NCBI GenBank assembly: GCA_016284875.1
Contig: JAEEPS010000008.1
Coordinates: forward strand, 581 to 64,580
DNA length: 64,000 nucleotides
Direction of reading: 5' to 3'
Origin: Salinivirgaceae bacterium
GTDB taxonomy: Bacteria > Bacteroidota > Bacteroidia > Bacteroidales > SZUA-534
Shown: positions 27,129 through 40,600 of the stretch, in pieces
How the letters are laid out: every line of letters starts with the position of its first letter
Position numbering within the stretch: position 1 is the first letter of the stretch
Notes under the pieces: model-generated
The model's input: the letters and a program-made list of their open reading frames with translations, nothing else
Database searches by the model: none
Told to the model about the DNA's origin: nothing
Made by a program: the position numbers and the translations under genes

Positions 27129-27151
27129 TTATTCTATAAGAGATAAAACAA

Positions 27152-27180
27152 AGCCCGGCCAACTTGGTCGGGCTTTTTTG
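27152..27180 (+). terminator. serS rho-independent terminator
   Basis: AGCCCGGCC-aactt-GGTCGGGCT followed by T6. Confidence 0.8.
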
Positions 27181-27185
27181 TTTGG

Positions 27186-27225
27186 ATTATAGATTAAGCA
27201 GATTTGAATCTGCTTAATCTATAAT
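27186..27225. repeat. 40-bp perfect palindrome at the left edge of the AT-rich island
   Basis: ATTATAGATTAAGCAGATT-tg-AATCTGCTTAATCTATAAT. A related AAGCAGATTTAATTCTGCTT hairpin lies at about 27352-27371. Confidence 0.85.
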
Positions 27226-27571
27226 TGGCACCTAAGCCACTCAATATTAATAGTTTGCGCGTATATTCTAAAATTCACAAGCCTCGTTTCTGCTATATTT
27301 TAGGTCAAAAATAGGCTCAAAAAGGCTTAATTTTTGCAAAAAACAAATATTAAGCAGATTTAATTCTGCTTGTTAATGATTGTGATATAGTTTATGGCTA
27401 CAATCGCCTTTTGATTTGCTTTAAATACCAATCTATCAATTATGCGAATCTATATTGACTAGTTTGTTGATTGTAAGCCAATCTATAGTATGTAATTGAG
27501 TTGGTGACAAATTCAGTTAAAGTACTATTGCAAAAAAAACAGGCATTAAGTATGTTTACAAACTGATTTTG

Positions 27572-28822
27572 ATGTGTGGAAACGTGGAAAACCTTAATAA
27601 ATATACCGTAATCGATCTCTTCGCAGGTTGTGGAGGTTTATCGCTTGGTTTGTATCAGGCGGGATGGAAAGGTTTGTTTGCCATTGAAAAGAATGCATTT
27701 GCATTTGAAACATTGAAATACAACCTGATTGACAACAAAAAACATTTTGATTGGCCTGATTGGTTGCCACAAACCGAGCACGATATTAACGAAGTGCTTG
27801 AAAAATATCCGGAGCAATTAAAATCACTGCAAGGTAAAGTGGATTTAGTTGCTGGCGGACCTCCGTGTCAAGGATTTTCTATGGCAGGGAAACGTGTAGA
27901 GGAAGATGTTCGAAACCAATTAGTGTTTTCTTACATTAAATTTATTGAATTGGTGCAGCCCAAAATGATTCTTTTTGAGAACGTAAAAGGCTTCACCTAT
28001 GCTTTTGACAAGAATAAAAAAGATGGCACCGAACCTTATTCACGTAAGGTAATACGCGGTTTGAAAAAACTGGGATATAATGTAAAACCACACGTCATAG
28101 ATTTTTCCAATTATGGCGTTCCGCAGCGACGCAAGCGATTTATTCTTGTAGGTATTAGAGATGAAATTGGTTCTCCCGAGAATTTTGAGAAATTTTTGAT
28201 GGAAAACAGAGATGCATTCTTGTCGCAGAAAGGGCTTAAATCTACCACCACATTGCAGGATGCAATTTCTGATTTACTTCGCTCTAACGGAGAAGAACCT
28301 ACACCCGACAGGAAAGGTTTTTATTCTGGCAAATACGGCAAGAATAAGTTGACTGCATACGAAAAATTGATGCGAGGTGATTATCCTAAAGAGCACGAGA
28401 TAGCAGACAGTCATAGTTTTGCAAAGCAAACACCTGACAAAATCGCCTGCTATAAACGGTTGTTGGCCGAATATCCGCAACGCGGCAAACGAATTGACGG
28501 AAAAGCTCGGGAGCCATGGGGAATTATGCAGCGCGGGATTACAGTTTTAGACCCGAACGCTGTTTCGCCAACCATTACCGGACATCCAGACGACTACTTG
28601 CATTACTGCGAACCCCGCATCATGACCGTTCGCGAGTGCGCCCGCATACAATCGTTTCCTGATTGGTACGAAATCAAGAAGAAATACACCACTGGTGGCA
28701 AGATGCGCAAGGTGGAAGTGCCTCGCTATACCCAAATTGGCAATGCCATCCCGCCGTTGTTTGCGGAACAGGCAGGAATAGTTTTATTAAATATGCTACG
28801 ATATGGAACAGATGCAGTTTAA
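27572..28822 (+). CDS. DNA (cytosine-5)-methyltransferase (M1)
   Basis: Motif I DLFAGCGG, IV GGPPCQGFS, VI ENVKG, VIII QRRKRFILVG, IX TVRECARIQSFPD, X GNAIPP. The 3' end overlaps the next gene by 20 nt. Confidence 0.9.
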   Translation: MCGNVENLNKYTVIDLFAGCGGLSLGLYQAGWKGLFAIEKNAFAFETLKYNLIDNKKHFDWPDWLPQTEHDINEVLEKYPEQLKSLQGKVDLVAGGPPCQGFSMAGKRVEEDVRNQLVFSYIKFIELVQPKMILFENVKGFTYAFDKNKKDGTEPYSRKVIRGLKKLGYNVKPHVIDFSNYGVPQRRKRFILVGIRDEIGSPENFEKFLMENRDAFLSQKGLKSTTTLQDAISDLLRSNGEEPTPDRKGFYSGKYGKNKLTAYEKLMRGDYPKEHEIADSHSFAKQTPDKIACYKRLLAEYPQRGKRIDGKAREPWGIMQRGITVLDPNAVSPTITGHPDDYLHYCEPRIMTVRECARIQSFPDWYEIKKKYTTGGKMRKVEVPRYTQIGNAIPPLFAEQAGIVLLNMLRYGTDAV

Positions 28823-31076
28823 AATAAGTTCATTTTTAAAAGATCTTATTGGACGAGAATTGATAACTGATGAATTCGTGGCAGTTTTCGAATTGGTTAA
28901 GAATTCCTTCGATGCACATGCAAAAAAAGTAAAAGTTATTTTTGAAAATCAATATGACTTGACAAACGCCAGAATTATCATTTGGGATAATGGACGAGGA
29001 ATGGACAAATCAGATTTACAAAACAAATGGTTGTTTGTTGCGCATTCTGACAAAAGGGATGGAACGGAGGACAAAGATTACAGAGATAAAATCCAACACA
29101 AACGCACCTTTGCCGGAGCTAAAGGTGTTGGTCGCTTCTCTTGTGATAGATTGGGAAGGTATCTTAATCTTCTTTCAATTAAAGACGCACCTAATGCTTT
29201 AATAGAGAATCTTAAGATAGATTGGACTTCTTTTGAACAAGACTCAAATCAGGAATTCATAGATATCAAAGTGGAACATGATAATTTATCAACAACAAAC
29301 TATGAAGATTTTCAGAAAGGAACAATTTTAGAGATCTCTGGACTGCGAGATATATGGGATAGAGATAGGATAAAGAAATTGAAAGTGTCCTTGGAAAAGC
29401 TTATTAACCCCATACAGGGGAATGATGTTAACGATTTTGCGATTGAGATTATTGCCAACGACGAGTTATTACAAGATCAGAAAGAAACAGATGATAGGGA
29501 CAAGGTTAATGGTGTTGTTCGAAATATTGTTTTTGAACGATTAGGATTAAAGACAACTCAGATCAAAGTGAGTATTACAAATCATGGTGGAACAATCACA
29601 ACAACATTAACAGACAGAGGTACAGATATATATACTTTAACGGAGCGCAATCCATATGATAAATTATATGATATAGATATTGTATTGTTTGTATTAAATA
29701 GAGCCGGGAAAATCAACTTCAAAAAAATAATGGGTGTTGATTCCGTTAAATACGGTTCCGTTTTTATTTACAAAAATGGATTTCGCATATATCCTTTTGG
29801 AGAGGAAGGTGATGATACTCTAAAAATAGACCGACGCAAGCAGCAAGGTTTTTATCGTTTCTTGGGAACCCGTGATTTATTGGGCCGCATTGAGATTAAT
29901 GGCGAACGATCTGATTTAAGAGAAACCACTAGTCGTGATGGTGGATTTGTTAAAAATGAATCATGGAATCAGTTAGTCGAGTTTTTCTATGACAAAGCAT
30001 TACGCCGTCTTGAAACTTATACCGTAGGTATCATTAAATGGGGTGATGAAAAGTTTGACAAAGAGACAGGTGAAATTATTCAGCCAGAACTAAAGCCCGA
30101 AGATGTTAAAGACAAAATATTGAACATTATTTCTAATTTGACAAAAGCAAAAGAGGTAATTGATGTTCAATATAATCAGGATTTTTTGCAAATCTACGAA
30201 TCTAAACAGGAGAGAAGTGCCACTCAACTTGTGAAAAATCTCACCCGTATGGCTGAAGAGACAAATAATCCACAATTTGTCAAACAGGCAAAAGCTGTTG
30301 AACGTCGTGTGGCTGAGCTCAAACAATCGGTTGGAGAATTAGAAAAAGAGAATGCTAACAAAGAAGAAGAAAATAAAAAGAATCAAGAAAAAATTCAACA
30401 ACTGAATACAGAAAATTTATTCTTATTATCTGATGTTCCGAATGATACTAAAGAATTCAAAAGTTTGCAACATCATATAACTCATACATCTAATTCTATT
30501 GCAGAATATATTGCATCTGCTACCGAATCATTAATTAATGGAGAGACGGAAAAAGCTTTGGAATATATGCGTTATGCAGAACTTGAAAATCAGATGATAC
30601 TGACATTATCTAACTTTGTTAGTAAAGCAAAATTTGACACGAAAGTAAATAAGATAACTGATGATATTATAACATTTATTGATGAATATATCAACAATCT
30701 ATATCTTCTAACACATAAAAAGATTAAGATTAATATTGAAAAGACTTCATATAAGCACATATACAAATTTGTTCCAATAGAGGTTATTATTTTAGTTGAC
30801 AACATCCTTAATAATGCACCAAAACATCATGCCAAAAATGTAGATATTTCATGGCACAAAAATGAAGACCACATAGAATTACACATCTCTAATGATGGAG
30901 ATACTCTATCCGATGAGCTACTGCCACATATCTTTGAATATAGGTTCTCTACGACGGGTGGCGGAGGCATCGGATTATATTACGCAAAAGAAATTATTAC
31001 CCGAATGAATGGTTTTATTTCGGTAAATAATAAGAGAACAAAAGGTGTAGAATTTATTATATCGTTCAAAAAATGA
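28803..31076 (+). CDS. Dual-GHKL protein: N-terminal MORC/Hsp90-like ATPase + coiled coil + DHp-like His helix + C-terminal histidine-kinase CA domain
   Basis: N-terminal Bergerat motifs: ELVKNSFDA (N box), WDNGRGM (G1), GAKGVGRFS (G2). Coiled coil around aa 495-540. His-rich helix SLQHHITHTSNSIAEYI at aa 555-570. C-terminal motifs: DNILNNAPKH (N box), SNDGD (G1), TTGGGGIGLYYAKEI (G2). Confidence 0.7.
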   Translation: MEQMQFKISSFLKDLIGRELITDEFVAVFELVKNSFDAHAKKVKVIFENQYDLTNARIIIWDNGRGMDKSDLQNKWLFVAHSDKRDGTEDKDYRDKIQHKRTFAGAKGVGRFSCDRLGRYLNLLSIKDAPNALIENLKIDWTSFEQDSNQEFIDIKVEHDNLSTTNYEDFQKGTILEISGLRDIWDRDRIKKLKVSLEKLINPIQGNDVNDFAIEIIANDELLQDQKETDDRDKVNGVVRNIVFERLGLKTTQIKVSITNHGGTITTTLTDRGTDIYTLTERNPYDKLYDIDIVLFVLNRAGKINFKKIMGVDSVKYGSVFIYKNGFRIYPFGEEGDDTLKIDRRKQQGFYRFLGTRDLLGRIEINGERSDLRETTSRDGGFVKNESWNQLVEFFYDKALRRLETYTVGIIKWGDEKFDKETGEIIQPELKPEDVKDKILNIISNLTKAKEVIDVQYNQDFLQIYESKQERSATQLVKNLTRMAEETNNPQFVKQAKAVERRVAELKQSVGELEKENANKEEENKKNQEKIQQLNTENLFLLSDVPNDTKEFKSLQHHITHTSNSIAEYIASATESLINGETEKALEYMRYAELENQMILTLSNFVSKAKFDTKVNKITDDIITFIDEYINNLYLLTHKKIKINIEKTSYKHIYKFVPIEVIILVDNILNNAPKHHAKNVDISWHKNEDHIELHISNDGDTLSDELLPHIFEYRFSTTGGGGIGLYYAKEIITRMNGFISVNNKRTKGVEFIISFKK

Positions 31077-32020
31077 GAATAAAATATAATATTCTTTGGG
31101 TTGATGACCGCAAAGAAACATTCATACGACTTGGACACGACAAACATCTTATAGATTATGTAAGTCGTTTATTCTTTGAGCCACATTTAACAATGTGTGA
31201 GAACATTGAAGAAGCGAAAGCCGCCTTGGGCACTCAATCTTTTGATGTAATATTCTCGGATTACAACATTAGCGATAGCAAGACAGACGAGCAAGGTGAT
31301 GATTTTATTGAATATGTACGTGAGCAGAACGTAAATACTGAAATACTTTTTTACTCTGCCATGGAGGAATTACCTACAATACACGTAAATCGTATATCTT
31401 TTTTCTCATTTGCAGGAAAGGCTGGTGCTTACCATGAACTTTTAGCACAAATGGAACTGTTAATAGAACTCACCGTAAAAAAGCTAAACGACATAACTGC
31501 ATTACGAGGTCTTGTTATGGCAGAGGTGAGTGAACTGGATGTCTTAATGGAACAAATCATTTTAGCATATTTCAATTCTCCAGAGAGAATGCGTACATTC
31601 CATGACCACATCACGGCGAATCGAGAAAAAACTTGGCATAAAATGCTAAATTCTAGTACTCAGTGCGATAAGCAATGTTTTCACATATGGCGTGAAAAAG
31701 ATCTAACAGAATATGTCAGCAAATTAGATTCTTCACAAAAAGCGCATGCCATTAACATTGTGCTTTCAGATATTGACTCTGCTCATGCTATTTGTACAGA
31801 TACCACATTTTTCAAAAACTATGATGATTCTATCATTCTCAATCGAAATAACTTAGCCCACTGCATTAGTATAAAAGATAAAAATGGAAATGAAATCTTA
31901 AAAACATGGAATGGAGATAAAATATACAATGATGACGAATTCCGCATTATGAGAGCAAACATTATTAAATATCACAACATGTTTACATCATTATTGACCA
32001 CATTAACCATGTCCGCATAA
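31073..32020 (+). CDS. Receiver (REC) domain protein fused to a helical C-terminal domain with an HEPN-type Rx4H motif
   Basis: ATGA start/stop overlap with the upstream gene. CheY-like landmarks: ILWVDD (D11, D12), DVIFSDYNI (D63), ILFYSA (S95), FAGK (K116). The C-terminal domain carries NRNNLAH (R258...H263, nt 31844-31861). Confidence 0.55.
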   Translation: MRIKYNILWVDDRKETFIRLGHDKHLIDYVSRLFFEPHLTMCENIEEAKAALGTQSFDVIFSDYNISDSKTDEQGDDFIEYVREQNVNTEILFYSAMEELPTIHVNRISFFSFAGKAGAYHELLAQMELLIELTVKKLNDITALRGLVMAEVSELDVLMEQIILAYFNSPERMRTFHDHITANREKTWHKMLNSSTQCDKQCFHIWREKDLTEYVSKLDSSQKAHAINIVLSDIDSAHAICTDTTFFKNYDDSIILNRNNLAHCISIKDKNGNEILKTWNGDKIYNDDEFRIMRANIIKYHNMFTSLLTTLTMSA

Positions 32021-32163
32021 AGCAATGGTAATATTAAGATGGATGATTTTACCACAGAGGATTTATTAAAACGAATAAAATAGACTAAATATCATTGTTC
32101 CGTAATACAGCGCCAAACCGCGATTTCTTGGCATATCATAGAAGATAGAATTTTTAAAGGTAA

Positions 32164-32868
32164 ATGAATCCAAATAAAACATATTATGCTGATGACAGAC
32201 TAAATAATTGTTGTGCATATTGCGGTGGTTTTGCTGAGACCGAAGATCATGTCCCCTCTCGTTGCTTTCTTGACAAACCTTACCCACAAAACATGCGTGT
32301 CGTACCATGCTGTCAAAAATGCAATCATGATTTTTCTATAGATGAGGAATATGTTTCTTGTTTAATCGATTGCATGAAGGAAAAGACAACGAATACTAAT
32401 TTAATAAGAAGGAAGAAAACACGAAAAACATTATCTCACTCATTTGGGTTGTCGGAAAGGATAAAAAGTCAATTTCGAAAATTTGCAGACATTGAAATTT
32501 GTGATATTGAAAAGAACCGATTTGAACTTGTTATGTCCAAATTGGCATTTGGACATTTAGCACATGAGAACAGTTCAATAAATTGGGATTCAGAATATAA
32601 GGTTGATATGTGGTTATTAGAAAATATGTCTAACCTTTTATTGAATGATTTTGAAAATCCATATTCTGGAGATGTTGTTCCCGAAGTTGGTAGTAATAGT
32701 TTATCTCGCATTCTAGTTGGGTTAGATGATTCTGCAATTTGTTGTGATTGGGTAATGGTTCAAAATGGAAGATATCGGTATTGTGTTTCCCCTGATAGTA
32801 CAAAAGTTAAATTTGTTATCGCAGAGTATTTGGCTGTTGAAGTATCAATTATGAGCCATAATGTTTAA
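32164..32868 (+). CDS. HNH endonuclease domain protein
   Basis: CAYCGG...EDHVPS...VPCCQKCNHDFS, that is CxxC / DH / CxxCN(H), in the first 60 aa. The C-terminal ~170 aa are unassigned. Confidence 0.7.
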   Translation: MNPNKTYYADDRLNNCCAYCGGFAETEDHVPSRCFLDKPYPQNMRVVPCCQKCNHDFSIDEEYVSCLIDCMKEKTTNTNLIRRKKTRKTLSHSFGLSERIKSQFRKFADIEICDIEKNRFELVMSKLAFGHLAHENSSINWDSEYKVDMWLLENMSNLLLNDFENPYSGDVVPEVGSNSLSRILVGLDDSAICCDWVMVQNGRYRYCVSPDSTKVKFVIAEYLAVEVSIMSHNV

Positions 32869-33048
32869 ATGTGGGAAAGTTTGTGATACTTCTGTCCTTA
32901 TGCAATACAACTTATTTATATTTGAGTAAAATAATTTGAGTAAAAAATTGACAATTGGCTCAAAGCAAACAATCACACCAAATTAATAAAGTCTGTGCCA
33001 GACTCGCCCCACAATTATCAACACCCCTTACAACATTTCCAACTTTCC

Positions 33049-33056
33049 TTATCTTT
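33049..33056 (+). promoter_or_regulatory. Bacteroidetes -7 box TAtcTTTG upstream of M2
   Basis: TAnnTTTG match, followed at 33063-33086 by the imperfect palindrome GCCGTTTTGCTATGGCAAAATGGC. Confidence 0.4.
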
Positions 33057-33185
33057 GCCTTTGCCGTTTTGCTATGGCAAAATGGCTCTGCATACATTAA
33101 GCGTCACCTTTTTATTGGCGCAAACACCCACGTTGTTTGTATGTAGATATTGAATAAGATTTTGAAAACATAGTCCGATTTTTAG

Positions 33186-34538
33186 GTGTTTGTAGGGCAA
33201 GGGAAATATAATACTGTGATAAAGGTAGGTACATTATTTAGTGGTATTGGTGCATTTGAACACGCATTAAAGCAGTTGAACATACAACATAAAATTTTGT
33301 TTGCTTGCGACAATGGGGAAAGGGAATTGCCTCTTACTTATGGCGATTTATTTAAACTTACTGCAGGTCTTAATGATGAACAATTGTATTCATTTTGTGA
33401 AGAATACATTAGTAAAATTGGTGTGAAGAAAGATTTACGCAAATTGGAAACAGACTTATTGTTTCAACTTGCACATAAAACGGAAACGCCCCCCCAAACA
33501 AATGTTGTAGTTGAATACAATAAAGTTGGCAGAAAGAGTCCTGTAAAACACAAACTTGCTATAACACAAGAACAAATCATTGCCTTAACCCCCAATATGA
33601 CAATGAAACAACGCGAACAATATGTTAAAGCGTTGTATGATAATATGCCAGAGCACAACTATGTGAAAGATGCCTATTTCGCCAATTATGATGTTACAGA
33701 TGCAGAATGGCACGAAGATATACGGTTTTTGGATGCAAAAGAATATGAAGGTAATTTGGACATTTTAATTGGTGGCAGCCCTTGCCAAAGTTTCTCTAAT
33801 TATGGAAAGAAACTTGGTTTAGAAGATGTTAGGGGTACATTGTTTTATGACTATGCACGTGTCATAAATGAAGCCAAACCTAAAGTCTTCATATACGAAA
33901 ATGTAGAAAACGTAACAAAAAATGATGGTGGGAAAACTTGGAAGGCAATGTTTTCTGTATGGCAATCATTAGGTTATCACATTGAATGGGACATTTTGGA
34001 TGCCAAAGATTATAATCACCCTCAATTAAGAAGCCGCCTTTTCCTCATTGGATTTAGAGAAGATATATACACCAAGCCATATACTTTCCCCGAAAAAATG
34101 GAATTGAAACATAAAAGCACAGAATACCTTGAAAAAGGGGAAGTAAGTGATATATACTATCTTGGGAAAAAAGGGTTTGAGTGGATTACAACACCAGAAA
34201 AGAATTTAAGGCGGTCAAGAGTAAACCAAGATGTAATTGGCTGTGAAACTGCCTATCAGCAAGACAATTGGATTGGTGATTTTAGAGTTGAGAAACCCAA
34301 ACCCCACCACTATAATGATGAGCGCATTTATGTAGGTAAATTTGATTTCAAAGATGGTAAAGGTCTTGTTGATGCCGTAGGCCGCAAAATGACACCACGC
34401 GAATGTATGAATTTGATGGGGTTTGATGATAGTTTTAAAATAGTTGTCAATGACAGCATTGCTTATCGCCACGCAGGTAACTCAATTGTTGTCCCTGTGT
34501 TAAAAGAAATAATAAAAACCCTCATTCCATATTTGTAA
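33186..34538 (+). CDS. DNA (cytosine-5)-methyltransferase (M2) with a long insertion between motifs II and III/IV
   Basis: Motif I LFSGIGAF, II FACDN, IV GGSPCQSFS (aa 197-204), VI ENVENV, VIII QLRSRLFLIG, IX TPRECMNLMGFDD, X AGNSIVVPV. The track start is a GTG, so the exact start is uncertain. Confidence 0.88.
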   Translation: MFVGQGKYNTVIKVGTLFSGIGAFEHALKQLNIQHKILFACDNGERELPLTYGDLFKLTAGLNDEQLYSFCEEYISKIGVKKDLRKLETDLLFQLAHKTETPPQTNVVVEYNKVGRKSPVKHKLAITQEQIIALTPNMTMKQREQYVKALYDNMPEHNYVKDAYFANYDVTDAEWHEDIRFLDAKEYEGNLDILIGGSPCQSFSNYGKKLGLEDVRGTLFYDYARVINEAKPKVFIYENVENVTKNDGGKTWKAMFSVWQSLGYHIEWDILDAKDYNHPQLRSRLFLIGFREDIYTKPYTFPEKMELKHKSTEYLEKGEVSDIYYLGKKGFEWITTPEKNLRRSRVNQDVIGCETAYQQDNWIGDFRVEKPKPHHYNDERIYVGKFDFKDGKGLVDAVGRKMTPRECMNLMGFDDSFKIVVNDSIAYRHAGNSIVVPVLKEIIKTLIPYL

Positions 34539-34559
34539 ACTCTTTTAAAATAATGTATT

Positions 34560-36380
34560 ATGGCAATTCAGTTTGGTACAGTAGATGGTTTGGTAAATAT
34601 TTCCGAGAGTATTATTCAACTTTTTGTACACGGAATAGGTGCCTTTAATTCATTAGGTGGTCCTGTTTATGCAAAAGAAAAAAACATTGCATATGGTATT
34701 GCGTTTCAAAGGTTTGTGGAACCTGTATATTCACAAGCAAAAGAACATTTTGAAATTGAAAGTATAAACATTGCTGTATATTCACAAAATGGTAATGAGC
34801 AAAGCCCCGCGCGTGCAACTTTTTGCAGGAAAATGGGATTGTTGGAAATAAATGAGCCAGCGGGAGTTTTTCGGTTGACACCTTTAGGCTGTGCTATTTT
34901 GAATAATGACATAACAATTCAAGAATATGCCTTCATTCTACTATCAAAATTAGGCGTATTTAAAGATGGTAATTATGTAGATAATGTATTTAATGTTATC
35001 GCCACATACTATCAAACCAACACGGTGCTTTCAAATGCAAGTTTGTTAAAATATTTAAAAGAGAAAAACAATGACACTTCATTTGAGAAAACCAGAGATG
35101 ACATAATTATTAATGCATTCACATTTGCTAATCTTATAACAAAAATTGACAAAGAAACTTATATACTAACAAATACAGGTTATGCTTTAATATTTTCGGA
35201 TTTTTGCAATCATAAATCAGCATTGACACCCGCAGTACTTGATGGTGATTCTAATTATAGTAAATACATTGGTGCATTAGATTATGGTATATTTGATATC
35301 CTAAATAAGGATAATGAATATATATACACCAAAATTTTTCCCAACCTTAAAAAATACATTAAAAAAAGTGGAGTTGGCAATAAAAACGATAACAATACAA
35401 CAACCCTTCAACAAATCTTCTACGGAGCCCCAGGTACAGGCAAAAGCCACGAAGTAAAGAAACTGACAGGAGAATTGTTGGATAACGGAGAAGAACAAGA
35501 TTTGCCCAATGTGTTCCGTACAACTTTCCATCCAGATACAGATTATGCTTCTTTTGTAGGATGTTATAAACCTACCATGAAACCGACATCCAAAGAGGAA
35601 AAGACTTTGACCGGCAAAGATGAAGAGATAGTATATGAATTTGTGCCGCAAGTCTTTACAGACGCTTATGTTTACGCATATAACAATCCCTCGAAACCGG
35701 CTTATCTGGTAATCGAAGAAATCAATCGCGGTAACTGCGCACAAATTTTTGGCGACCTGATCCAACTATTGGATAGAAAGGATGGTAAATCCGAATACAA
35801 AATCAAAGCCGACAAGGACTTGGCAAAATATCTTAACGAAGCCAAAGATAAAAATGGTCAAGATATTTTGACGAATAAAGAAGGCATCAAAGACGGAAAG
35901 CTCTGTTTGCCAGCAAATCTGCATATCCTTGCCACCATGAACACCTCCGACCAGAGTCTGTTCCCCATGGACAGCGCTTTCAAGCGCCGTTGGGAATGGG
36001 AATATGTGCCCATCAATTATGATACAAACATCAATTCTGGCGATTTTGAAATCACCATCGGCGACAAATCTTATTCGTGGGTTGACTTCATCAAGCAAGT
36101 GAACAAGAAGATTTTCGACCTTACCCAAAGCGAAGACAAGCAAATGGGTAACTTCTTCATCAAACATTCCATTGATGAAGTAGGTTTCAAGAGCAAAGTG
36201 ATGTTCTATCTCTGGTACGAAGTACTGCGCGATGAGACGGAAAACAACAAGTATTTCTTTTACGGGGAAACAACCGATGATGGCAAATTGAGCAAATTCA
36301 CTTTCAAAGACCTGTACGGAGACCAAGCGACAGATACATTGCAGCAATTTATGGAATACCTGAAGGTTACTCCTAAATGA
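34560..36380 (+). CDS. McrB-like AAA+ GTPase (LlaJI R1-like) with an unassigned ~280-aa N-terminal domain
   Basis: Walker A FYGAPGTGKSH (nt 35424-35447), the McrB signature LVIEEINRGNCAQIFGDLIQLLDR, and ATMNTSDQSLFPMDSAFKRRWEWEY. Confidence 0.85.
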   Translation: MAIQFGTVDGLVNISESIIQLFVHGIGAFNSLGGPVYAKEKNIAYGIAFQRFVEPVYSQAKEHFEIESINIAVYSQNGNEQSPARATFCRKMGLLEINEPAGVFRLTPLGCAILNNDITIQEYAFILLSKLGVFKDGNYVDNVFNVIATYYQTNTVLSNASLLKYLKEKNNDTSFEKTRDDIIINAFTFANLITKIDKETYILTNTGYALIFSDFCNHKSALTPAVLDGDSNYSKYIGALDYGIFDILNKDNEYIYTKIFPNLKKYIKKSGVGNKNDNNTTTLQQIFYGAPGTGKSHEVKKLTGELLDNGEEQDLPNVFRTTFHPDTDYASFVGCYKPTMKPTSKEEKTLTGKDEEIVYEFVPQVFTDAYVYAYNNPSKPAYLVIEEINRGNCAQIFGDLIQLLDRKDGKSEYKIKADKDLAKYLNEAKDKNGQDILTNKEGIKDGKLCLPANLHILATMNTSDQSLFPMDSAFKRRWEWEYVPINYDTNINSGDFEITIGDKSYSWVDFIKQVNKKIFDLTQSEDKQMGNFFIKHSIDEVGFKSKVMFYLWYEVLRDETENNKYFFYGETTDDGKLSKFTFKDLYGDQATDTLQQFMEYLKVTPK

Positions 36381-38455
36381 AAATTCTCATTGAGCAATAC
36401 GGCTACGCAAAGGACAAGTTGAGTGCCATACTCGACCCGCACTACTTCACGGAACTGCGTGACGGAAAAGCCAAGATACCTTACGTGGGTTATTTCCTGT
36501 CGCACAAGATTCCTGACATGGTATTTATCCTGCCGAAAGTGTTCATTATCGATGGTAAAGCGTTTGGAGAATACGATCCGGAAGAGATTGTCGACTTCGA
36601 GCAACTCAAGCCAGATCACAAAAAAAATGTGTTCAGTCTATCCGTATGGGTATACCGAGCCATCAAACTCTATTTCCAACGCAAAGACAAGACAGGAGAG
36701 GAAACGGAAATATTGCAGAACGTGGTTTTCCACCAAGGTCCGAGAAGCGAGACAATGATAGATATTGTGCTTTCTCTGCTGAAGTTTGACAAAGAGCACA
36801 AGAACTTGTTTGCCTATATTACCCGCCTCAAACATTCCGGACAGAACAAGATACATTGGCAGAAAACAATCTCCCGAACACAGGCACTCATCCAAAACGG
36901 AGATCCCATTTATATCCAACCTCACACCAAACAGAAAGGCATCAACTTCGACGAAGAACTGATTGTGCTGTTTTATTCGGTACTGAACTATCTGGCACAG
37001 GAATTCAAGTTCAACGTCCGTCCGGTATTCGGGTATGACTTGCTTAAACCCGAAACCATTCAATCCATGATAGGCAGCGGAAAAGGCGTTCGTTTACTCC
37101 GTCAAAACCGTCGCGAATATTTCACGGACGAGATGGTGCTGTTGTGGAACCTGCTATTCACGTTCTTTGAGCAATCGCAATATGTCCAAAGCAAGGACAA
37201 CGACGACGAGCAGGCTATGCTTGTCCGCGAGTTCAACCTTGTATTCGAGGATATGATTGATTCACTCATCGGAGACAATGACATCCGCGGTGGATTAAAG
37301 GAACAGAAAGACGGAAAGATAATCGACCATATCTACCGCGATAATGCGCTGATAGAGGACAAGAAGCAAATCTATTTCATCGGCGACAGCAAGTATTACA
37401 AAGATGACAACGACATCGGTCCGAATTCTATCTACAAGCAATTCACATACGCCAAGAATGTCATACAATACAATATTGATTTCTTCAACAGCAACCCTCA
37501 AGAGTTTGAGTCGGAGAACTTATTATACAGAGACAACAAGACCGAGGGCTACAATATCACACCGAATTTCTTTATTCGCGGACATCTGCAAGCCGGCAAA
37601 CTGGACAATTATAGTGATGACAACTTGCAATTGGAAAAAACGAGTGACGGTAAGGAATACAGGATCTCTTATCATTTTGAGAACCGGCTCTTTGACCGCG
37701 ACACGCTTATTCTGCAAACATACAACATCAACTTTCTTTTTGTGCTTGCGTGCTATGTGCAAGGTGCAGGGGAGCATACGCAAGAACTCAGAGTTAAATT
37801 CCGAAACAATATCAAAAAAGTTCTTCAGTCGCAGTATAAGTTCTATGCTATCAAACCTAAAGTACAGGAAGAAGCGGAAGCGTTTATGCATGACAATTTC
37901 CAACAGGTGCTTGGCAAAGTGTTTGCGCCTTATGCCGCTTCCACCAACTGCATGGCAATGGCTTTGGACAAGAATGTGGATAATACCGCCACGCTTAACC
38001 TGATTGGCAAGTATTTCTACTGGCACCCAATTCCCCAAGACCATTTGGACACAGATCTCGTTTTATTGTTTAGCGAGGAGGAGAAGACTCAACTTCATGT
38101 CACAGTTCCTGCGATAGATAAAAATGCCAGATGCATCATTACGGCGCTTGTTAGAAAGAGTGATAAGAATTACGACAAGTATAATACTGGAGAAGCAGAA
38201 GATTATATCATGGAATCGGTTCCTGCGGTTAGTTTGATGAGCATCAAATATTTGATGCCTATGGTTTCGTATGACTTGCAAGGATACTATGAAGTGACCG
38301 ATATGAGGATCCATCCCAAATCCGGTGCTATGAAATTCTATTTAGGACATTTCTTCTCGTTAGGCGGAAAGCCAGTTAATATCGCCGGAAAAATGCGACA
38401 CGGAGAATTGATAAATTTTGAATACATAGAGCGGTTATATAATGAAGATAATTAG
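36377..38455 (+). CDS. LlaJI/McrC-like PD-(D/E)xK restriction endonuclease subunit with a C-terminal extension
   Basis: ATGA overlap with the McrB-like gene. Wording FEDMIDSLIG...IIDHIY...IYFIGDSKYYKD (D-x-K at aa 337-339, nt 37385-37393) fits the McrC/LlaJI type. About 250 extra C-terminal residues are unassigned. Confidence 0.7.
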   Translation: MKILIEQYGYAKDKLSAILDPHYFTELRDGKAKIPYVGYFLSHKIPDMVFILPKVFIIDGKAFGEYDPEEIVDFEQLKPDHKKNVFSLSVWVYRAIKLYFQRKDKTGEETEILQNVVFHQGPRSETMIDIVLSLLKFDKEHKNLFAYITRLKHSGQNKIHWQKTISRTQALIQNGDPIYIQPHTKQKGINFDEELIVLFYSVLNYLAQEFKFNVRPVFGYDLLKPETIQSMIGSGKGVRLLRQNRREYFTDEMVLLWNLLFTFFEQSQYVQSKDNDDEQAMLVREFNLVFEDMIDSLIGDNDIRGGLKEQKDGKIIDHIYRDNALIEDKKQIYFIGDSKYYKDDNDIGPNSIYKQFTYAKNVIQYNIDFFNSNPQEFESENLLYRDNKTEGYNITPNFFIRGHLQAGKLDNYSDDNLQLEKTSDGKEYRISYHFENRLFDRDTLILQTYNINFLFVLACYVQGAGEHTQELRVKFRNNIKKVLQSQYKFYAIKPKVQEEAEAFMHDNFQQVLGKVFAPYAASTNCMAMALDKNVDNTATLNLIGKYFYWHPIPQDHLDTDLVLLFSEEEKTQLHVTVPAIDKNARCIITALVRKSDKNYDKYNTGEAEDYIMESVPAVSLMSIKYLMPMVSYDLQGYYEVTDMRIHPKSGAMKFYLGHFFSLGGKPVNIAGKMRHGELINFEYIERLYNEDN

Positions 38456-38500
38456 CGACAATAATGGATAAAGATAATCTAATAAAGAATATACACAATT

Positions 38501-39955
38501 ATGATTACAAACGAAATCAAAACAATTATTGCCGACATACAAGCTTCTCCCAAAGAATGCGAGTGGGTGGAGATAAAGCAGAACAACTATAACCCGCAAT
38601 TAATCGGAGAATATATTTCAGCTTTATCAAATGGTGCTGCGTATATGGGTCAATCTAAGGGTTATCTTGTTTTTGGTTTAAAAGATGATACGCATGAAAT
38701 TGTCGGGACAGATTATAATCCTACAAATGAAAAAATAGGCAATCAGGAATTGGAAAACTGGATTGCCACACAATTGTCCCCACGTATTGATTTTGTAATC
38801 CATAATGACATTGTAATCAACGAAAAAAGGGTTGTCCTATTTGTCATTGATTCAGCAGGTAACACACCTGTCAAGTTTAGAGGTGTAGCATATACAAGAG
38901 TTGGTTCATACAAGAAACCATTAGCCGAGCATCCTGAAATCGAACGAAAAATATGGCAAAATACTCATAATAACTGTTTTGAGACTAAAATAGCCAAAAG
39001 CGGATTAAATGCAGATGAGGTATTAGATTTGATTGATTACGCATCTGTATTTAAATTACTGCACATTCCATTTCCAGAAACTAAAACTGCTATTTTAGAT
39101 AAATTAGCGGAGGAGAAGTTAATTCATAAACGTGCTTCATGCTATGATATCACTAACTTAGGAGCAATCCTTTTTGCTACCAATTTGCAAGTTTTTGATA
39201 TGCTTTCCCGTAAAGCAGTTCGTGTTATTTTCTATAAGGGGACCAATAAACTACATGCCATACGAGAACAAGTCGGGAATAAAGGATATGCCATCGGCTT
39301 TGAAGGTTTAGTAAATTATATCAACGAACGATTACCTATAAATGAGGAAATTGGAAAAGTATTACGAAAAGACAATCCTATCTATCCGGAAATAGCTATT
39401 CGTGAGTTTGTGGCAAATGCACTTATTCATCAAGATTTTTACATGGGCGGTATGTCTCCAATGATTGAAATATATACCAATCGGATGGAAATATCTAACC
39501 CAGGTAAGCCGCTAATTGATGTGCTTCGATTCATAGACCATACTCCTATCAGCCGAAATGAACTTCTCGCGTCTATTATGCGACGGATGAATTTCTGTGA
39601 GGAACGAGGAAGTGGTGTGGATCGAGCATTGCATCAATGCGAATTATTCCAACTTCCAGCTCCCGATTTTATAAAAGATGATTTTAGTACAAAAGTTGTC
39701 ATGTTTGCTCCTCAAACATTACGTCAGATGAATAGGGAGGATAAAATTAGAGTTTGTTATCAGCATTGTTGCTTGAAATATGTAGCAGGTGAAAAAATGA
39801 CCAACGAAAGTTTAAGAAGCCGGTTAGAAATTTCTGATGCCAATTATTCTATTGCTTCACGTATTATATCAGATACCATTTCTGCTAACTTAATACGATT
39901 GGACGACAAAAACAAATCAAGGAAGTATGCGCAATATGTACCGATATGGTCGTAA
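38501..39955 (+). CDS. AlbA_2 (Schlafen-like) + HATPase_c_4 putative DNA-binding/ATP-binding regulator
   Basis: The N-terminus ECEWVEIKQNNYNPQLIGEYISALSNGAAYMGQSKGYLVFGLKDD is the divergent AAA/AlbA_2 signature. Later, REFVANALIHQDF...ISNPG fits HATPase_c_4. Confidence 0.7.
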   Translation: MITNEIKTIIADIQASPKECEWVEIKQNNYNPQLIGEYISALSNGAAYMGQSKGYLVFGLKDDTHEIVGTDYNPTNEKIGNQELENWIATQLSPRIDFVIHNDIVINEKRVVLFVIDSAGNTPVKFRGVAYTRVGSYKKPLAEHPEIERKIWQNTHNNCFETKIAKSGLNADEVLDLIDYASVFKLLHIPFPETKTAILDKLAEEKLIHKRASCYDITNLGAILFATNLQVFDMLSRKAVRVIFYKGTNKLHAIREQVGNKGYAIGFEGLVNYINERLPINEEIGKVLRKDNPIYPEIAIREFVANALIHQDFYMGGMSPMIEIYTNRMEISNPGKPLIDVLRFIDHTPISRNELLASIMRRMNFCEERGSGVDRALHQCELFQLPAPDFIKDDFSTKVVMFAPQTLRQMNREDKIRVCYQHCCLKYVAGEKMTNESLRSRLEISDANYSIASRIISDTISANLIRLDDKNKSRKYAQYVPIWS

Positions 39956-40075
39956 TCTTATGTGACGGCAGAGTGATTAAGCAATCATTTTTGTTACTTA
40001 ACCAACTGTAAATCAGTTATATCATTATGTGACTATTATGTGATTGAGATGTAATATGTATTATTGTATACCCCT

Positions 40076-40600
40076 ATGCCCGACCCACTAACACCCGAAC
40101 AACGGCACCTTTGCATGTCGCATATCCGCAGCCGCAACACCAAGCCTGAGTTGAAGGTGCGGCAATGGCTGTGGCATCACGGCTATCACTATAGGCTCAA
40201 TGTCAAGAGTGTGCCTGGCAAGCCCGACATTGTGATGAGGCGCTTCCGCACAGCCATTTTTGTCAACGGCTGCTTCTGGCACGGGCACAGCGGTTGCGAC
40301 AAGTTTCGGATGCCAAAGAGCAACGTTAATTTCTGGCAGGCTAAAATCAGCCGCAACCGTGAGCGCGACCAGCACAACTATCAGACTTTGCTCGAAAACG
40401 GTTGGCAGGTGATTGTGGTTTGGGAATGTCAACTCACAACCGCGCTCATTGAGCAGACAATGCGCCTGGTTGAACTGCGGCTCAATCAGAATTTTCTGTC
40501 GATTTACAAGCCAAAACCCAAGCCATACGCCATGCCAATCGACGAGCCGCTGCCAATGGCGGCTGAGAGCCAGTCAGCCTATGGCAAACAAGATAAATAA
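40076..40600 (+). CDS. vsr: Very short patch repair endonuclease
   Basis: SRNTKPELKVRQWLWHHGYHYRLN...LPGKPDIVMRRFRTAIFVNGCFWHGH...FWQAKISRNRERD...GWQVIVVWECQL. Confidence 0.9.
   Translation: MPDPLTPEQRHLCMSHIRSRNTKPELKVRQWLWHHGYHYRLNVKSVPGKPDIVMRRFRTAIFVNGCFWHGHSGCDKFRMPKSNVNFWQAKISRNRERDQHNYQTLLENGWQVIVVWECQLTTALIEQTMRLVELRLNQNFLSIYKPKPKPYAMPIDEPLPMAAESQSAYGKQDK

Follow-up and report, generated by a model that had tools for sequence, protein, structure and literature searches.

A divergent HNH nuclease family linked to C5-cytosine methylase modules in Bacteroidales islands: a candidate DNA-cleaving effector with an undescribed C-terminal fold

Does a small HNH nuclease gene that stands between two C5-cytosine methylase genes belong to one of them, to the signalling genes beside it, or to none of its neighbours? 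The question was raised by a 64,000-nucleotide stretch of DNA from a Salinivirgaceae bacterium (contig JAEEPS010000008.1, positions 581 to 64,580), hereafter the window, in which the HNH gene follows a C5-cytosine methylase (M1), a kinase-like GHKL protein, and a receiver-like protein, and directly precedes a second C5-cytosine methylase (M2). An earlier note on this DNA had proposed the nuclease as the possible DNA-cutting arm of the M1 module, either as half of a type II-like pair with M1 or as an output of the signalling genes. Our analysis revealed an HNH family that is linked to C5-methylase (Dcm) and GHKL genes and does not co-vary with any of them. We read its members, at a probability of roughly 0.4, as generic DNA-cleaving effectors for defence modules that mark self DNA by C5-methylation, with discrimination taking place in trans.

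The reading frame is a real gene. Conservation extends over its full length in 133 close homologues, which reach E values as low as 1e-159 and are, with few exceptions, 226–243 amino acids (aa) long. The earlier note had recognized an HNH core in the first ~60 residues, and the alignments bore this out: C17, C20, D28, H29, C50, C53, and N54 were invariant in 37 Bacteroidales homologues, as were C17, C20, H29, C50, C53, and N54 in 61 homologues at 32–43% identity. Position 28 was D or E throughout both sets, and N43 was N in 45 of the 61 distant homologues, with D, E, or H in the rest. AlphaFold2 with the family alignment gave a model with a predicted local distance difference test score (pLDDT) of 88.1 and a predicted template modelling score (pTM) of 0.86, in which the core (pLDDT ~90) showed the beta-beta-alpha(-metal) arrangement, with strands at 26–29 and 46–49 and a helix at 51–73.

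The window protein had no above-threshold match to the Pfam HNH models (PF01844/PF14279), and sequence searches of NCBIfam and the PDB with the single sequence and the family profile returned nothing significant. HNH_5 (PF14279) was the sole recurrent Pfam match in the family, found on residues ~16–58 in 20 of the 61 distant relatives and always below the gathering score (best match E 1.1e-4, 22.5 bits versus 27.5). PADLOC detected only the core, weakly, through PDC-M01B (residues 13–57) and PtuB, and the literature on PDC-M01 and MADS yielded nothing usable. A Foldseek search of viral models (BFVD) aligned ~55 residues with phage HNHc proteins, but the superposition fell short of statistical significance. 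Because the motif residues are invariant, the model is beta-beta-alpha, and HNH_5 matches recur below threshold, we regard the window protein as a divergent, catalytically intact HNH protein of the H-N-N type with a predicted four-cysteine zinc site; alignment and model make it very probably an active nuclease. With HNH_5 and the beta-beta-alpha-Me superfamily it shares the CxxC...(D/E)H...N...CxxCN zinc-ribbon core and the predicted fold, whereas the HNH_5 matches of its relatives stay below the gathering score, it has none itself, and a C-terminal region of ~170 aa lies outside every HNH model.

The lack of an assignment for this region, pointed out in the earlier note, was confirmed: the C-terminal ~170 aa matched nothing in Pfam, NCBIfam, PADLOC, or the PDB sequences, and Foldseek searches of the PDB with the full-length and C-terminal-only models (pLDDT of the latter, 84) gave nothing below E 0.3. 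The fold resembled neither SRA nor any other known modified-base reader in the PDB. It is predicted to comprise helices (residues 84–136) followed by a beta-rich part (144–230), and R83, R119, K126, H131, E135, E174, W196, Q200, Y204, and Y206 are conserved in it. A profile of the region alone retrieved just the same ~230-aa family plus truncated fragments, and this search did not find it joined to any other N-terminal domain; by that measure the region is obligately coupled to this HNH core. Given the high pTM, it is probably packed onto the core and not loosely tethered. The best 150 family matches were essentially all ~220–260 aa long and aligned end to end, and the family, as judged from these alignments, has a fixed ~230-aa architecture. 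Extra N-terminal domains in longer homologues were considered and rejected, as the extensions look like mis-called starts.

Gene neighbourhoods were compared across 21 non-redundant Bacteroidales loci, window included (other loci are denoted L001 and so on). A Dcm gene was present in all 21, and its reading frame started ≤450 bp downstream of the HNH gene on the same strand in 18, with some gaps of just 4–40 bp. GHKL (HATPase_c_3) ATPases or kinases occurred in 17 loci and McrB-like proteins in 10. In one arrangement, Dcm, kinase, receiver, and in some cases a small protein precede the HNH gene, and another Dcm cassette follows it (window, L004, L010, L020, L022, L026, L119, and L121); here the HNH gene lies 5–9 bp after the upstream operon gene in L004, L010, L020, and L022, and a 50-aa open reading frame (ORF) overlaps its start in L121. 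A second arrangement runs HNH-Dcm-kinase (L001, L014, L015, L021, and L024). The third has no kinase, the HNH-Dcm pair being followed by Hachiman (HamA plus helicase) in L013 and L016 and by Vsr plus EcoRII-C in L007. In L011 and L012, a Dcm gene flanks the HNH gene on either side; a GmrSD_N protein is encoded two genes upstream of HNH, and an MTaX1 protein downstream of it. The replacement of kinase and receiver by Hachiman-like genes in L013 and L016 indicates that the sensor modules beside the HNH-Dcm pair are swapped. In these two loci (L013:12058-16007 and L016:8083-12032), the methylase is orthologous to M1, the HNH gene lies upstream of it, and HamA with a DEAD/ResIII helicase occupies the place of the kinase and receiver.

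Such neighbourhoods could also be those of a classical type II endonuclease cognate to the adjacent C5-methylase (M2 or M1) and cutting its unmethylated site. The nuclease-then-methylase order, the short gaps, and the constant presence of Dcm in the Bacteroidales clade fit this explanation, as do the decay of the nuclease gene with the methylase kept in L022 and L026 and the clustering of HNH proteins by methylase type within the subgroups L013/L016/L024, L014/L015/L021, and L019/L020/L023. However, HNH identity was unrelated overall to that of the adjacent Dcm (Spearman 0.01 over 105 pairs; medians 56% for HNH and 34% for Dcm). With the window as the reference, HNH proteins were 54–91% identical in loci whose methylases and kinases were just 25–44% identical, and they kept 76–91% identity even when all methylases and kinases of a locus were 25–35% identical to the window's. 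In L119, the HNH protein was 91% identical, the kinase 35%, and the downstream methylases 25–31%; in L010, the HNH protein was 76% identical, and none of the three Dcm genes exceeded 29% to M1 or M2. Loci with an M1 orthologue at 77–86% identity (L001, L024, L026, and L121) all carry this HNH, at just 52–69% identity to the window's, and the similarly high-scoring M1-like methylases of L013 (746.7 bits) and L016 (721.6 bits) are likewise accompanied by it.

The adjacent methylases, moreover, have nucleases of their own: RE_NgoFVII_C in L121, EcoRII-C in L007, MvaI/BcnI on plasmid pP73D, and, in ten loci including the window, McrB-like pairs. The lack of co-variation, the presence of these partners beside the methylases, and the absence of a nearby Dcm from about half of the distant members (described below) make a classical type II pair unlikely. 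For the first two of these reasons, the idea of the protein as the cognate type II enzyme of M1, one of the two arrangements envisaged in the earlier note, was rejected. The conserved place of the family is directly upstream of a Dcm, and the window methylase in that position is M2, not M1.

To describe the more distant relatives, we used 80 metagenome loci whose HNH proteins were 35–43% identical, 26 of them ≥8 kb long. Dcm was found in 22 and GHKL in 9 of the 80 loci, and in 14 and 6, respectively, of the 26 longer ones; 12 of the 26 had no Dcm, other methylase classes having been only partly surveyed. Of the 146 genes at most two positions away from the HNH gene, the largest share by Pfam family belonged to DNA_methylase (10), followed by Vsr (4) and Helicase_C (3). 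Three environmental loci (L077, L090, and L102), with HNH proteins ~38% identical to the window's, keep Dcm, kinase (706 aa), receiver (362 aa), and HNH in this order, with a gap of ~38 bp. Other distant loci place the HNH gene beside DISARM-like components (SNF2, MZB/DUF1998, PLD), MmeI-type or type ISP enzymes, or UvrD-nuclease fusions. Linkage to GHKL was also seen in Rhodobacterales plasmids, Pseudomonas aeruginosa, and Burkholderia; in the latter two (L109–L114), the HNH gene is convergent to a PLDc_2-MZB(DUF1998)-large helicase-(Methyltransf_35)-HATPase_c_3 operon. This operon has the look of a DISARM-like system with a GHKL ATPase, and the P. aeruginosa locus adjoins transfer genes of an integrative and conjugative element (TraG-like, DtrJ-like). 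On the Rhodobacterales plasmids pBM153 (L123) and pP73D (L124), the HNH gene lies between a divergent pair of ATP-binding protein and Dcm genes and a Dcm-Vsr(-MvaI/BcnI) cassette. The earlier note had asked whether homologues occur mostly without methylase or kinase neighbours. For the methylase they do not; for the kinase they do so only in part.

Distant loci of this kind also bear on the possibility that the protein is an autonomous nuclease, modification-dependent (type IV-like) or self-limiting, that needs no neighbours and uses its C-terminal region as its own reader of DNA or modified bases. The fixed architecture of a nuclease plus an uncharacterized domain recalls McrA-like enzymes, which likewise combine HNH with a second domain in one polypeptide and often stand alone in islands. 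The 12 longer loci without Dcm, the solitary copies in Panacibacter and Pantoea contexts, the gene's own leader and its movement as a single-gene cassette (see below), and the independence of HNH conservation from all neighbours point in the same direction. Adjacency to Dcm, however, far exceeds ordinary co-localization in islands (directly downstream in 18 of 21 loci, with gaps down to 4–40 bp), and an enzyme dependent on 5-methylcytosine (m5C) would be toxic to its own host beside an active Dcm unless its context preference differed. The absence of a known type of modified-base reader from the C-terminal fold also speaks against autonomy. In comparison with McrA-type enzymes, the domain order is reversed, with HNH N-terminal, no likeness to known m5C-reading domains (SRA, the McrA N-terminal domain) was found, and the family tightly adjoins active-looking Dcm genes. 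We consider an autonomous nuclease possible, if doubtful.

The DNA around the gene revealed how it moves. Comparison of the window with L119 (L119:3658-4521) showed 93% nucleotide identity over 32113-32978 only, with both sides unalignable, and within the gene the first ~200 nt had L001 as their nearest relative (90%), and L010 and L022 (82–83%) were nearest to the last ~570 nt. The pattern looks like gene-sized plus intragenic recombination. Because the identity with L119 is confined to this segment and the two parts of the gene differ in their nearest relatives, the HNH gene is, on these alignments, a slowly evolving unit shuffled among otherwise unrelated methylase cassettes. The gap between HNH and M2 holds a tandem 12-mer, ATTTGAGTAAAA x2, at 32920-32945, and TAnnTTTG occurs in it twice, at 32917 and 33050; the gap between receiver and HNH holds none of these motifs. 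TAnnTTTG is the Bacteroidetes -7 promoter consensus, and the two motifs may be Bacteroidetes-type -7 boxes forming a putative promoter for M2. As the motif at 32917 falls inside the conserved tail, the downstream methylase may receive a promoter from the cassette. A sigma-70 promoter and terminator scan performed no better than on shuffled sequences, its consensus being unsuited to Bacteroidetes.

A gene-sized mosaic with sharp borders and intragenic mosaicism is also what a selfish, homing-like free-standing endonuclease could leave behind as it spreads among Dcm loci, for example by cutting methylase genes or island junctions, with no role in defence. A serine recombinase directly upstream in L007 and two plasmids and the pseudogenes in 3 of the 21 loci would suit such an element. 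However, the shared segment is surrounded by non-homologous flanks, unlike in homing, and the protein is under strong full-length purifying conservation across phyla. The family had no match among GenBank phages and only 12 among 2.9 million viral contigs scanned, versus more than 500 in metagenomes. We judge a homing-like element to be quite improbable. The recombinase gene itself is small and precedes HNH, or HNH_5 plus HNH, in L123, L124, and L007:8349-8924.

A conserved small nuclease beside diverse Dcm genes is, in addition, the pattern of Vsr, and HhH-GPD, SRAP, and AP-endonuclease genes among the distant neighbours could be taken to suggest a repair accessory of C5-methylases that nicks T:G or other methylase-made lesions. 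The likeness to Vsr lies in a small conserved gene beside C5-methylases of many specificities; the differences are that the Vsr fold is unrelated, that the window HNH has no PF03852 match, and that both occur in the same cassettes. Genuine Vsr accompanies the HNH gene rather than replacing it (window island, L007, pBM153, pP73D, and 4 of the 146 distant neighbours), and the setting is that of defence islands, not of core-genome Dcm loci. The protein was accordingly rejected as a Vsr analogue, and a repair role appears very unlikely.

The reading that we prefer is that of a zinc-stabilized H-N-N HNH DNase, with its C-terminal alpha/beta region packed on the catalytic core, which would serve as a generic cleavage effector for methylase-marking modules. 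A self-contained cassette of ~0.85 kb (leader, gene, and 3' flank) would recombine among C5-methylase-centred defence islands; the sensor ATPase/kinase, the receiver, or the methylase would tell self-methylated from foreign DNA in trans; and the nuclease itself would read no methylase-specific sequence. Its role in the window would be that of the DNA-cutting arm of the M1/GHKL-histidine-kinase/receiver-HEPN module, placed directly upstream of the M2/McrB-like module, and its DNA cutting would work alongside an RNA-directed HEPN-like output fused to the receiver. The earlier proposal of such an arm thus stands in part: the linkage to Dcm (21/21) and GHKL (17/21) and a gene order kept at ~38% identity agree with it, and the absence of co-variation with M1 does not. 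A more specific formulation, which we hold only tentatively and regard as doubtful, is a new restriction-effector class specific to m5C immunity, in which a sequence-non-specific HNH DNase would dock through its novel C-terminal fold on a conserved surface of Dcm or the GHKL ATPase, or on the phosphorylated receiver, with cleavage licensed in trans.

Several observations weigh against an effector of this kind. HNH identity does not follow kinase identity either, so there is no indication that the HNH protein binds the kinase or the receiver as a specific partner, and 4 of the 21 Bacteroidales loci have Dcm without GHKL. Many distant loci have neither, and the HNH protein may act autonomously. 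In the window, a 143-bp gap with a cassette-specific leader separates the HNH gene from the receiver gene, and the HNH gene may not be co-transcribed with the kinase/receiver module. Finally, frameshifted copies (L022:9998-10700, L025:9992-10716, and L026:10001-10704) stand beside intact methylase and McrB-like genes, so the HNH gene is dispensable in some islands. A phase-variable frameshift was rejected, as the lesion in L026 is a single 1-nt deletion and not a homopolymer tract.

The earlier note had considered the arrangement of the window unusual; as a type, it is not. Bellieny-Rabelo et al. (2021; PMC8011034) described in silico neighbourhoods of a C5-methylase, a HATPase_c_3/HEF_HK/HATPase_c kinase-like protein, and Response_reg_2, accompanied by type II nucleases and by "variants of HNH" that were mostly HNH_2. 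The window resembles this two-component system (TCS)-like system in its C5-methylase, its HATPase_c_3 protein with a C-terminal HATPase_c, its receiver-like protein, and a nearby HNH gene. It differs in that kinase and receiver match neither PF19191 nor PF19192, that the receiver carries a HEPN-like Rx4H domain, and that the HNH genes there are mainly HNH_2 and not of the window family. We liken the window kinase and receiver to that system and do not file them as members, owing to the missing PF19191 and PF19192 matches. Earlier, Iyer, Abhiman, and Aravind (2008; PMC2292703) reported GHKL proteins (paraMORC/MORC) with DNA methylases and HNH or other nucleases in predicted restriction-type operons. 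The combination of GHKL ATPase, DNA methylase, and HNH nuclease is shared with the window, whereas that description is generic, without a specific family or structure, and the window HNH family also accompanies non-GHKL systems (Hachiman, DISARM-like cassettes, and plain restriction-modification). No experimental follow-up of TCS-like or paraMORC modules was found in the literature. The module type had thus been described in silico; the HNH family and its C-terminal fold had not been described.

The features of the window are listed in Table 1. The genes from M1 to Vsr, HNH included, form a same-strand run. They make up a ~13-kb block (~27200-40000) that has 32–44% GC, versus ~47–56% in most flanking windows; serS (strong terminator at 27150-27176) borders it on one side, a class I aminoacyl-tRNA synthetase gene on the other. 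From its low GC and this position, we conclude that the block is an acquired island. In the kinase-like protein (PF13589 E 1.2e-20, PF02518 E 1.3e-25), whose start is overlapped by M1, the N-terminus resembles the BbrUII/HgiDII-family ATPase; HEF_HK (PF19191) gave no match to residues 500–660 at E up to 10, and a conserved HH at residue 557 is merely suggestive as a phospho-acceptor. Response_reg (PF00072) matched the receiver-like protein below threshold (E 2.3e-5, 25 bits versus 30.2), as did cREC_REC, and Response_reg_2 (PF19192) did not match it, despite its place next to the kinase. HEPN_MAE_28990 also matched below threshold (E 0.039). An RNNLAH motif (Rx4H, HEPN-like) is present at 31844-31861, with RNDLAH in the 33%-identical homologue of L001. 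These features suggest that the receiver-like protein may be a receiver-HEPN RNase output of the kinase-like protein.

Between kinase and HNH, the relatives have a receiver protein of ~205–240 aa and, after it, a protein of ~200–240 aa with a conserved HG...C dyad. The dyad looks caspase/CHAT-like by eye, with no Pfam match. Effectors seem to be interchangeable among the two-component-like modules. Downstream of HNH, the McrB-like protein (with a weak NCBIfam McrB match) and its 692-aa partner are likely M2's own restriction arm, as far as their sequences tell. This cassette of a methylase with a McrBC-like pair recurs in 10 of the 21 related islands, often with two methylases.

Table 1. Features of the window island and the corresponding slot in related loci
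Feature	Coordinates	Strand	Basis
M1, C5-cytosine DNA methylase	27569..28822	+	PF00145 E 6.6e-59
GHKL (HATPase_c_3) N-terminal module fused to histidine-kinase-type HATPase_c, 757 aa	28803..31076	+	Pfam
Receiver-like domain plus C-terminal domain with RNNLAH, 315 aa	31073..32020	+	Sub-threshold Response_reg, HEPN_MAE_28990
Conserved 51-nt leader of the HNH gene	32113..32163	+	Near-identical to L119 from 32113; DNA further upstream unalignable
HNH-family nuclease gene, 234 aa, ATG start	32164..32868	+	Homologues and AlphaFold2 model
HNH catalytic core (HNH_5-like, H-N-N type), residues ~16-58	32209..32337	+	C17xxC20, D28-H29, N43, C50xxC53-N54
Family-specific C-terminal alpha/beta region (predicted), residues 72-234	32377..32865	+	Conservation; no match in databases
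Conserved 3' flank of the HNH cassette, ~110 nt	32869..32978	+	Tandem 12-mer, TAnnTTTG motif
M2, second C5-cytosine methylase, directly downstream of HNH	33186..34538	+	PF00145 E 4e-66
McrB-like AAA_5 protein	34560..36380	+	AAA_5; PADLOC REase_II 1.2e-42; weak NCBIfam McrB match
692-aa partner of the McrB-like protein, without family match	36377..38455	+	
SLFN/AlbA_2-HATPase_c_4 gene	38501..39955		
Vsr mismatch endonuclease, end of island	40064..40600	+	ORF; PF03852 on identical contigs L116/L117
Slot between kinase and HNH in related loci	L004:9400-9996, L010:9355-9993, L021:14843-15445, L119:2990-3628, L121:9176-9895, L026:9298-9939, L024:15373-16050		

An exhaustive profile search placed the wider family at no fewer than 3,798 clusters at 50% identity (at least that number at E≤1e-3; 419 at E≤1e-30). 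No Pfam, NCBIfam, or PADLOC model covers it, and its records are named only "hypothetical protein" or "HNH endonuclease", apart from one JGI record that says "McrA". Members were found in Bacteroidales metagenome-assembled genomes, Flavobacterium, Panacibacter, the Burkholderia cepacia complex, Cupriavidus, and Pantoea, and on rhizobial and Rhodobacterales plasmids; one P. aeruginosa cluster spans 393 contigs. E. coli complete genomes gave no match when queried with two proteobacterial members.

This very widespread family, with members in P. aeruginosa and the Burkholderia cepacia complex, carries a 170-residue region without a detectable structural relative. To our knowledge, many methylase-centred defence systems (paraMORC/TCS-like, DISARM-like, and Mza-like) have no identified DNA-cutting component. 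Since the HNH family tracks C5-methylases whatever their specificity, it is a concrete and reasonable candidate for the nuclease still missing from several of these systems. If cleavage is licensed in trans, one nuclease cassette would be shared among many self-marking systems; if the more specific class tentatively set out above is real, that cassette would serve methylases of any specificity as a plug-in "R" subunit for m5C systems, among them the two-component-controlled m5C system of the window.

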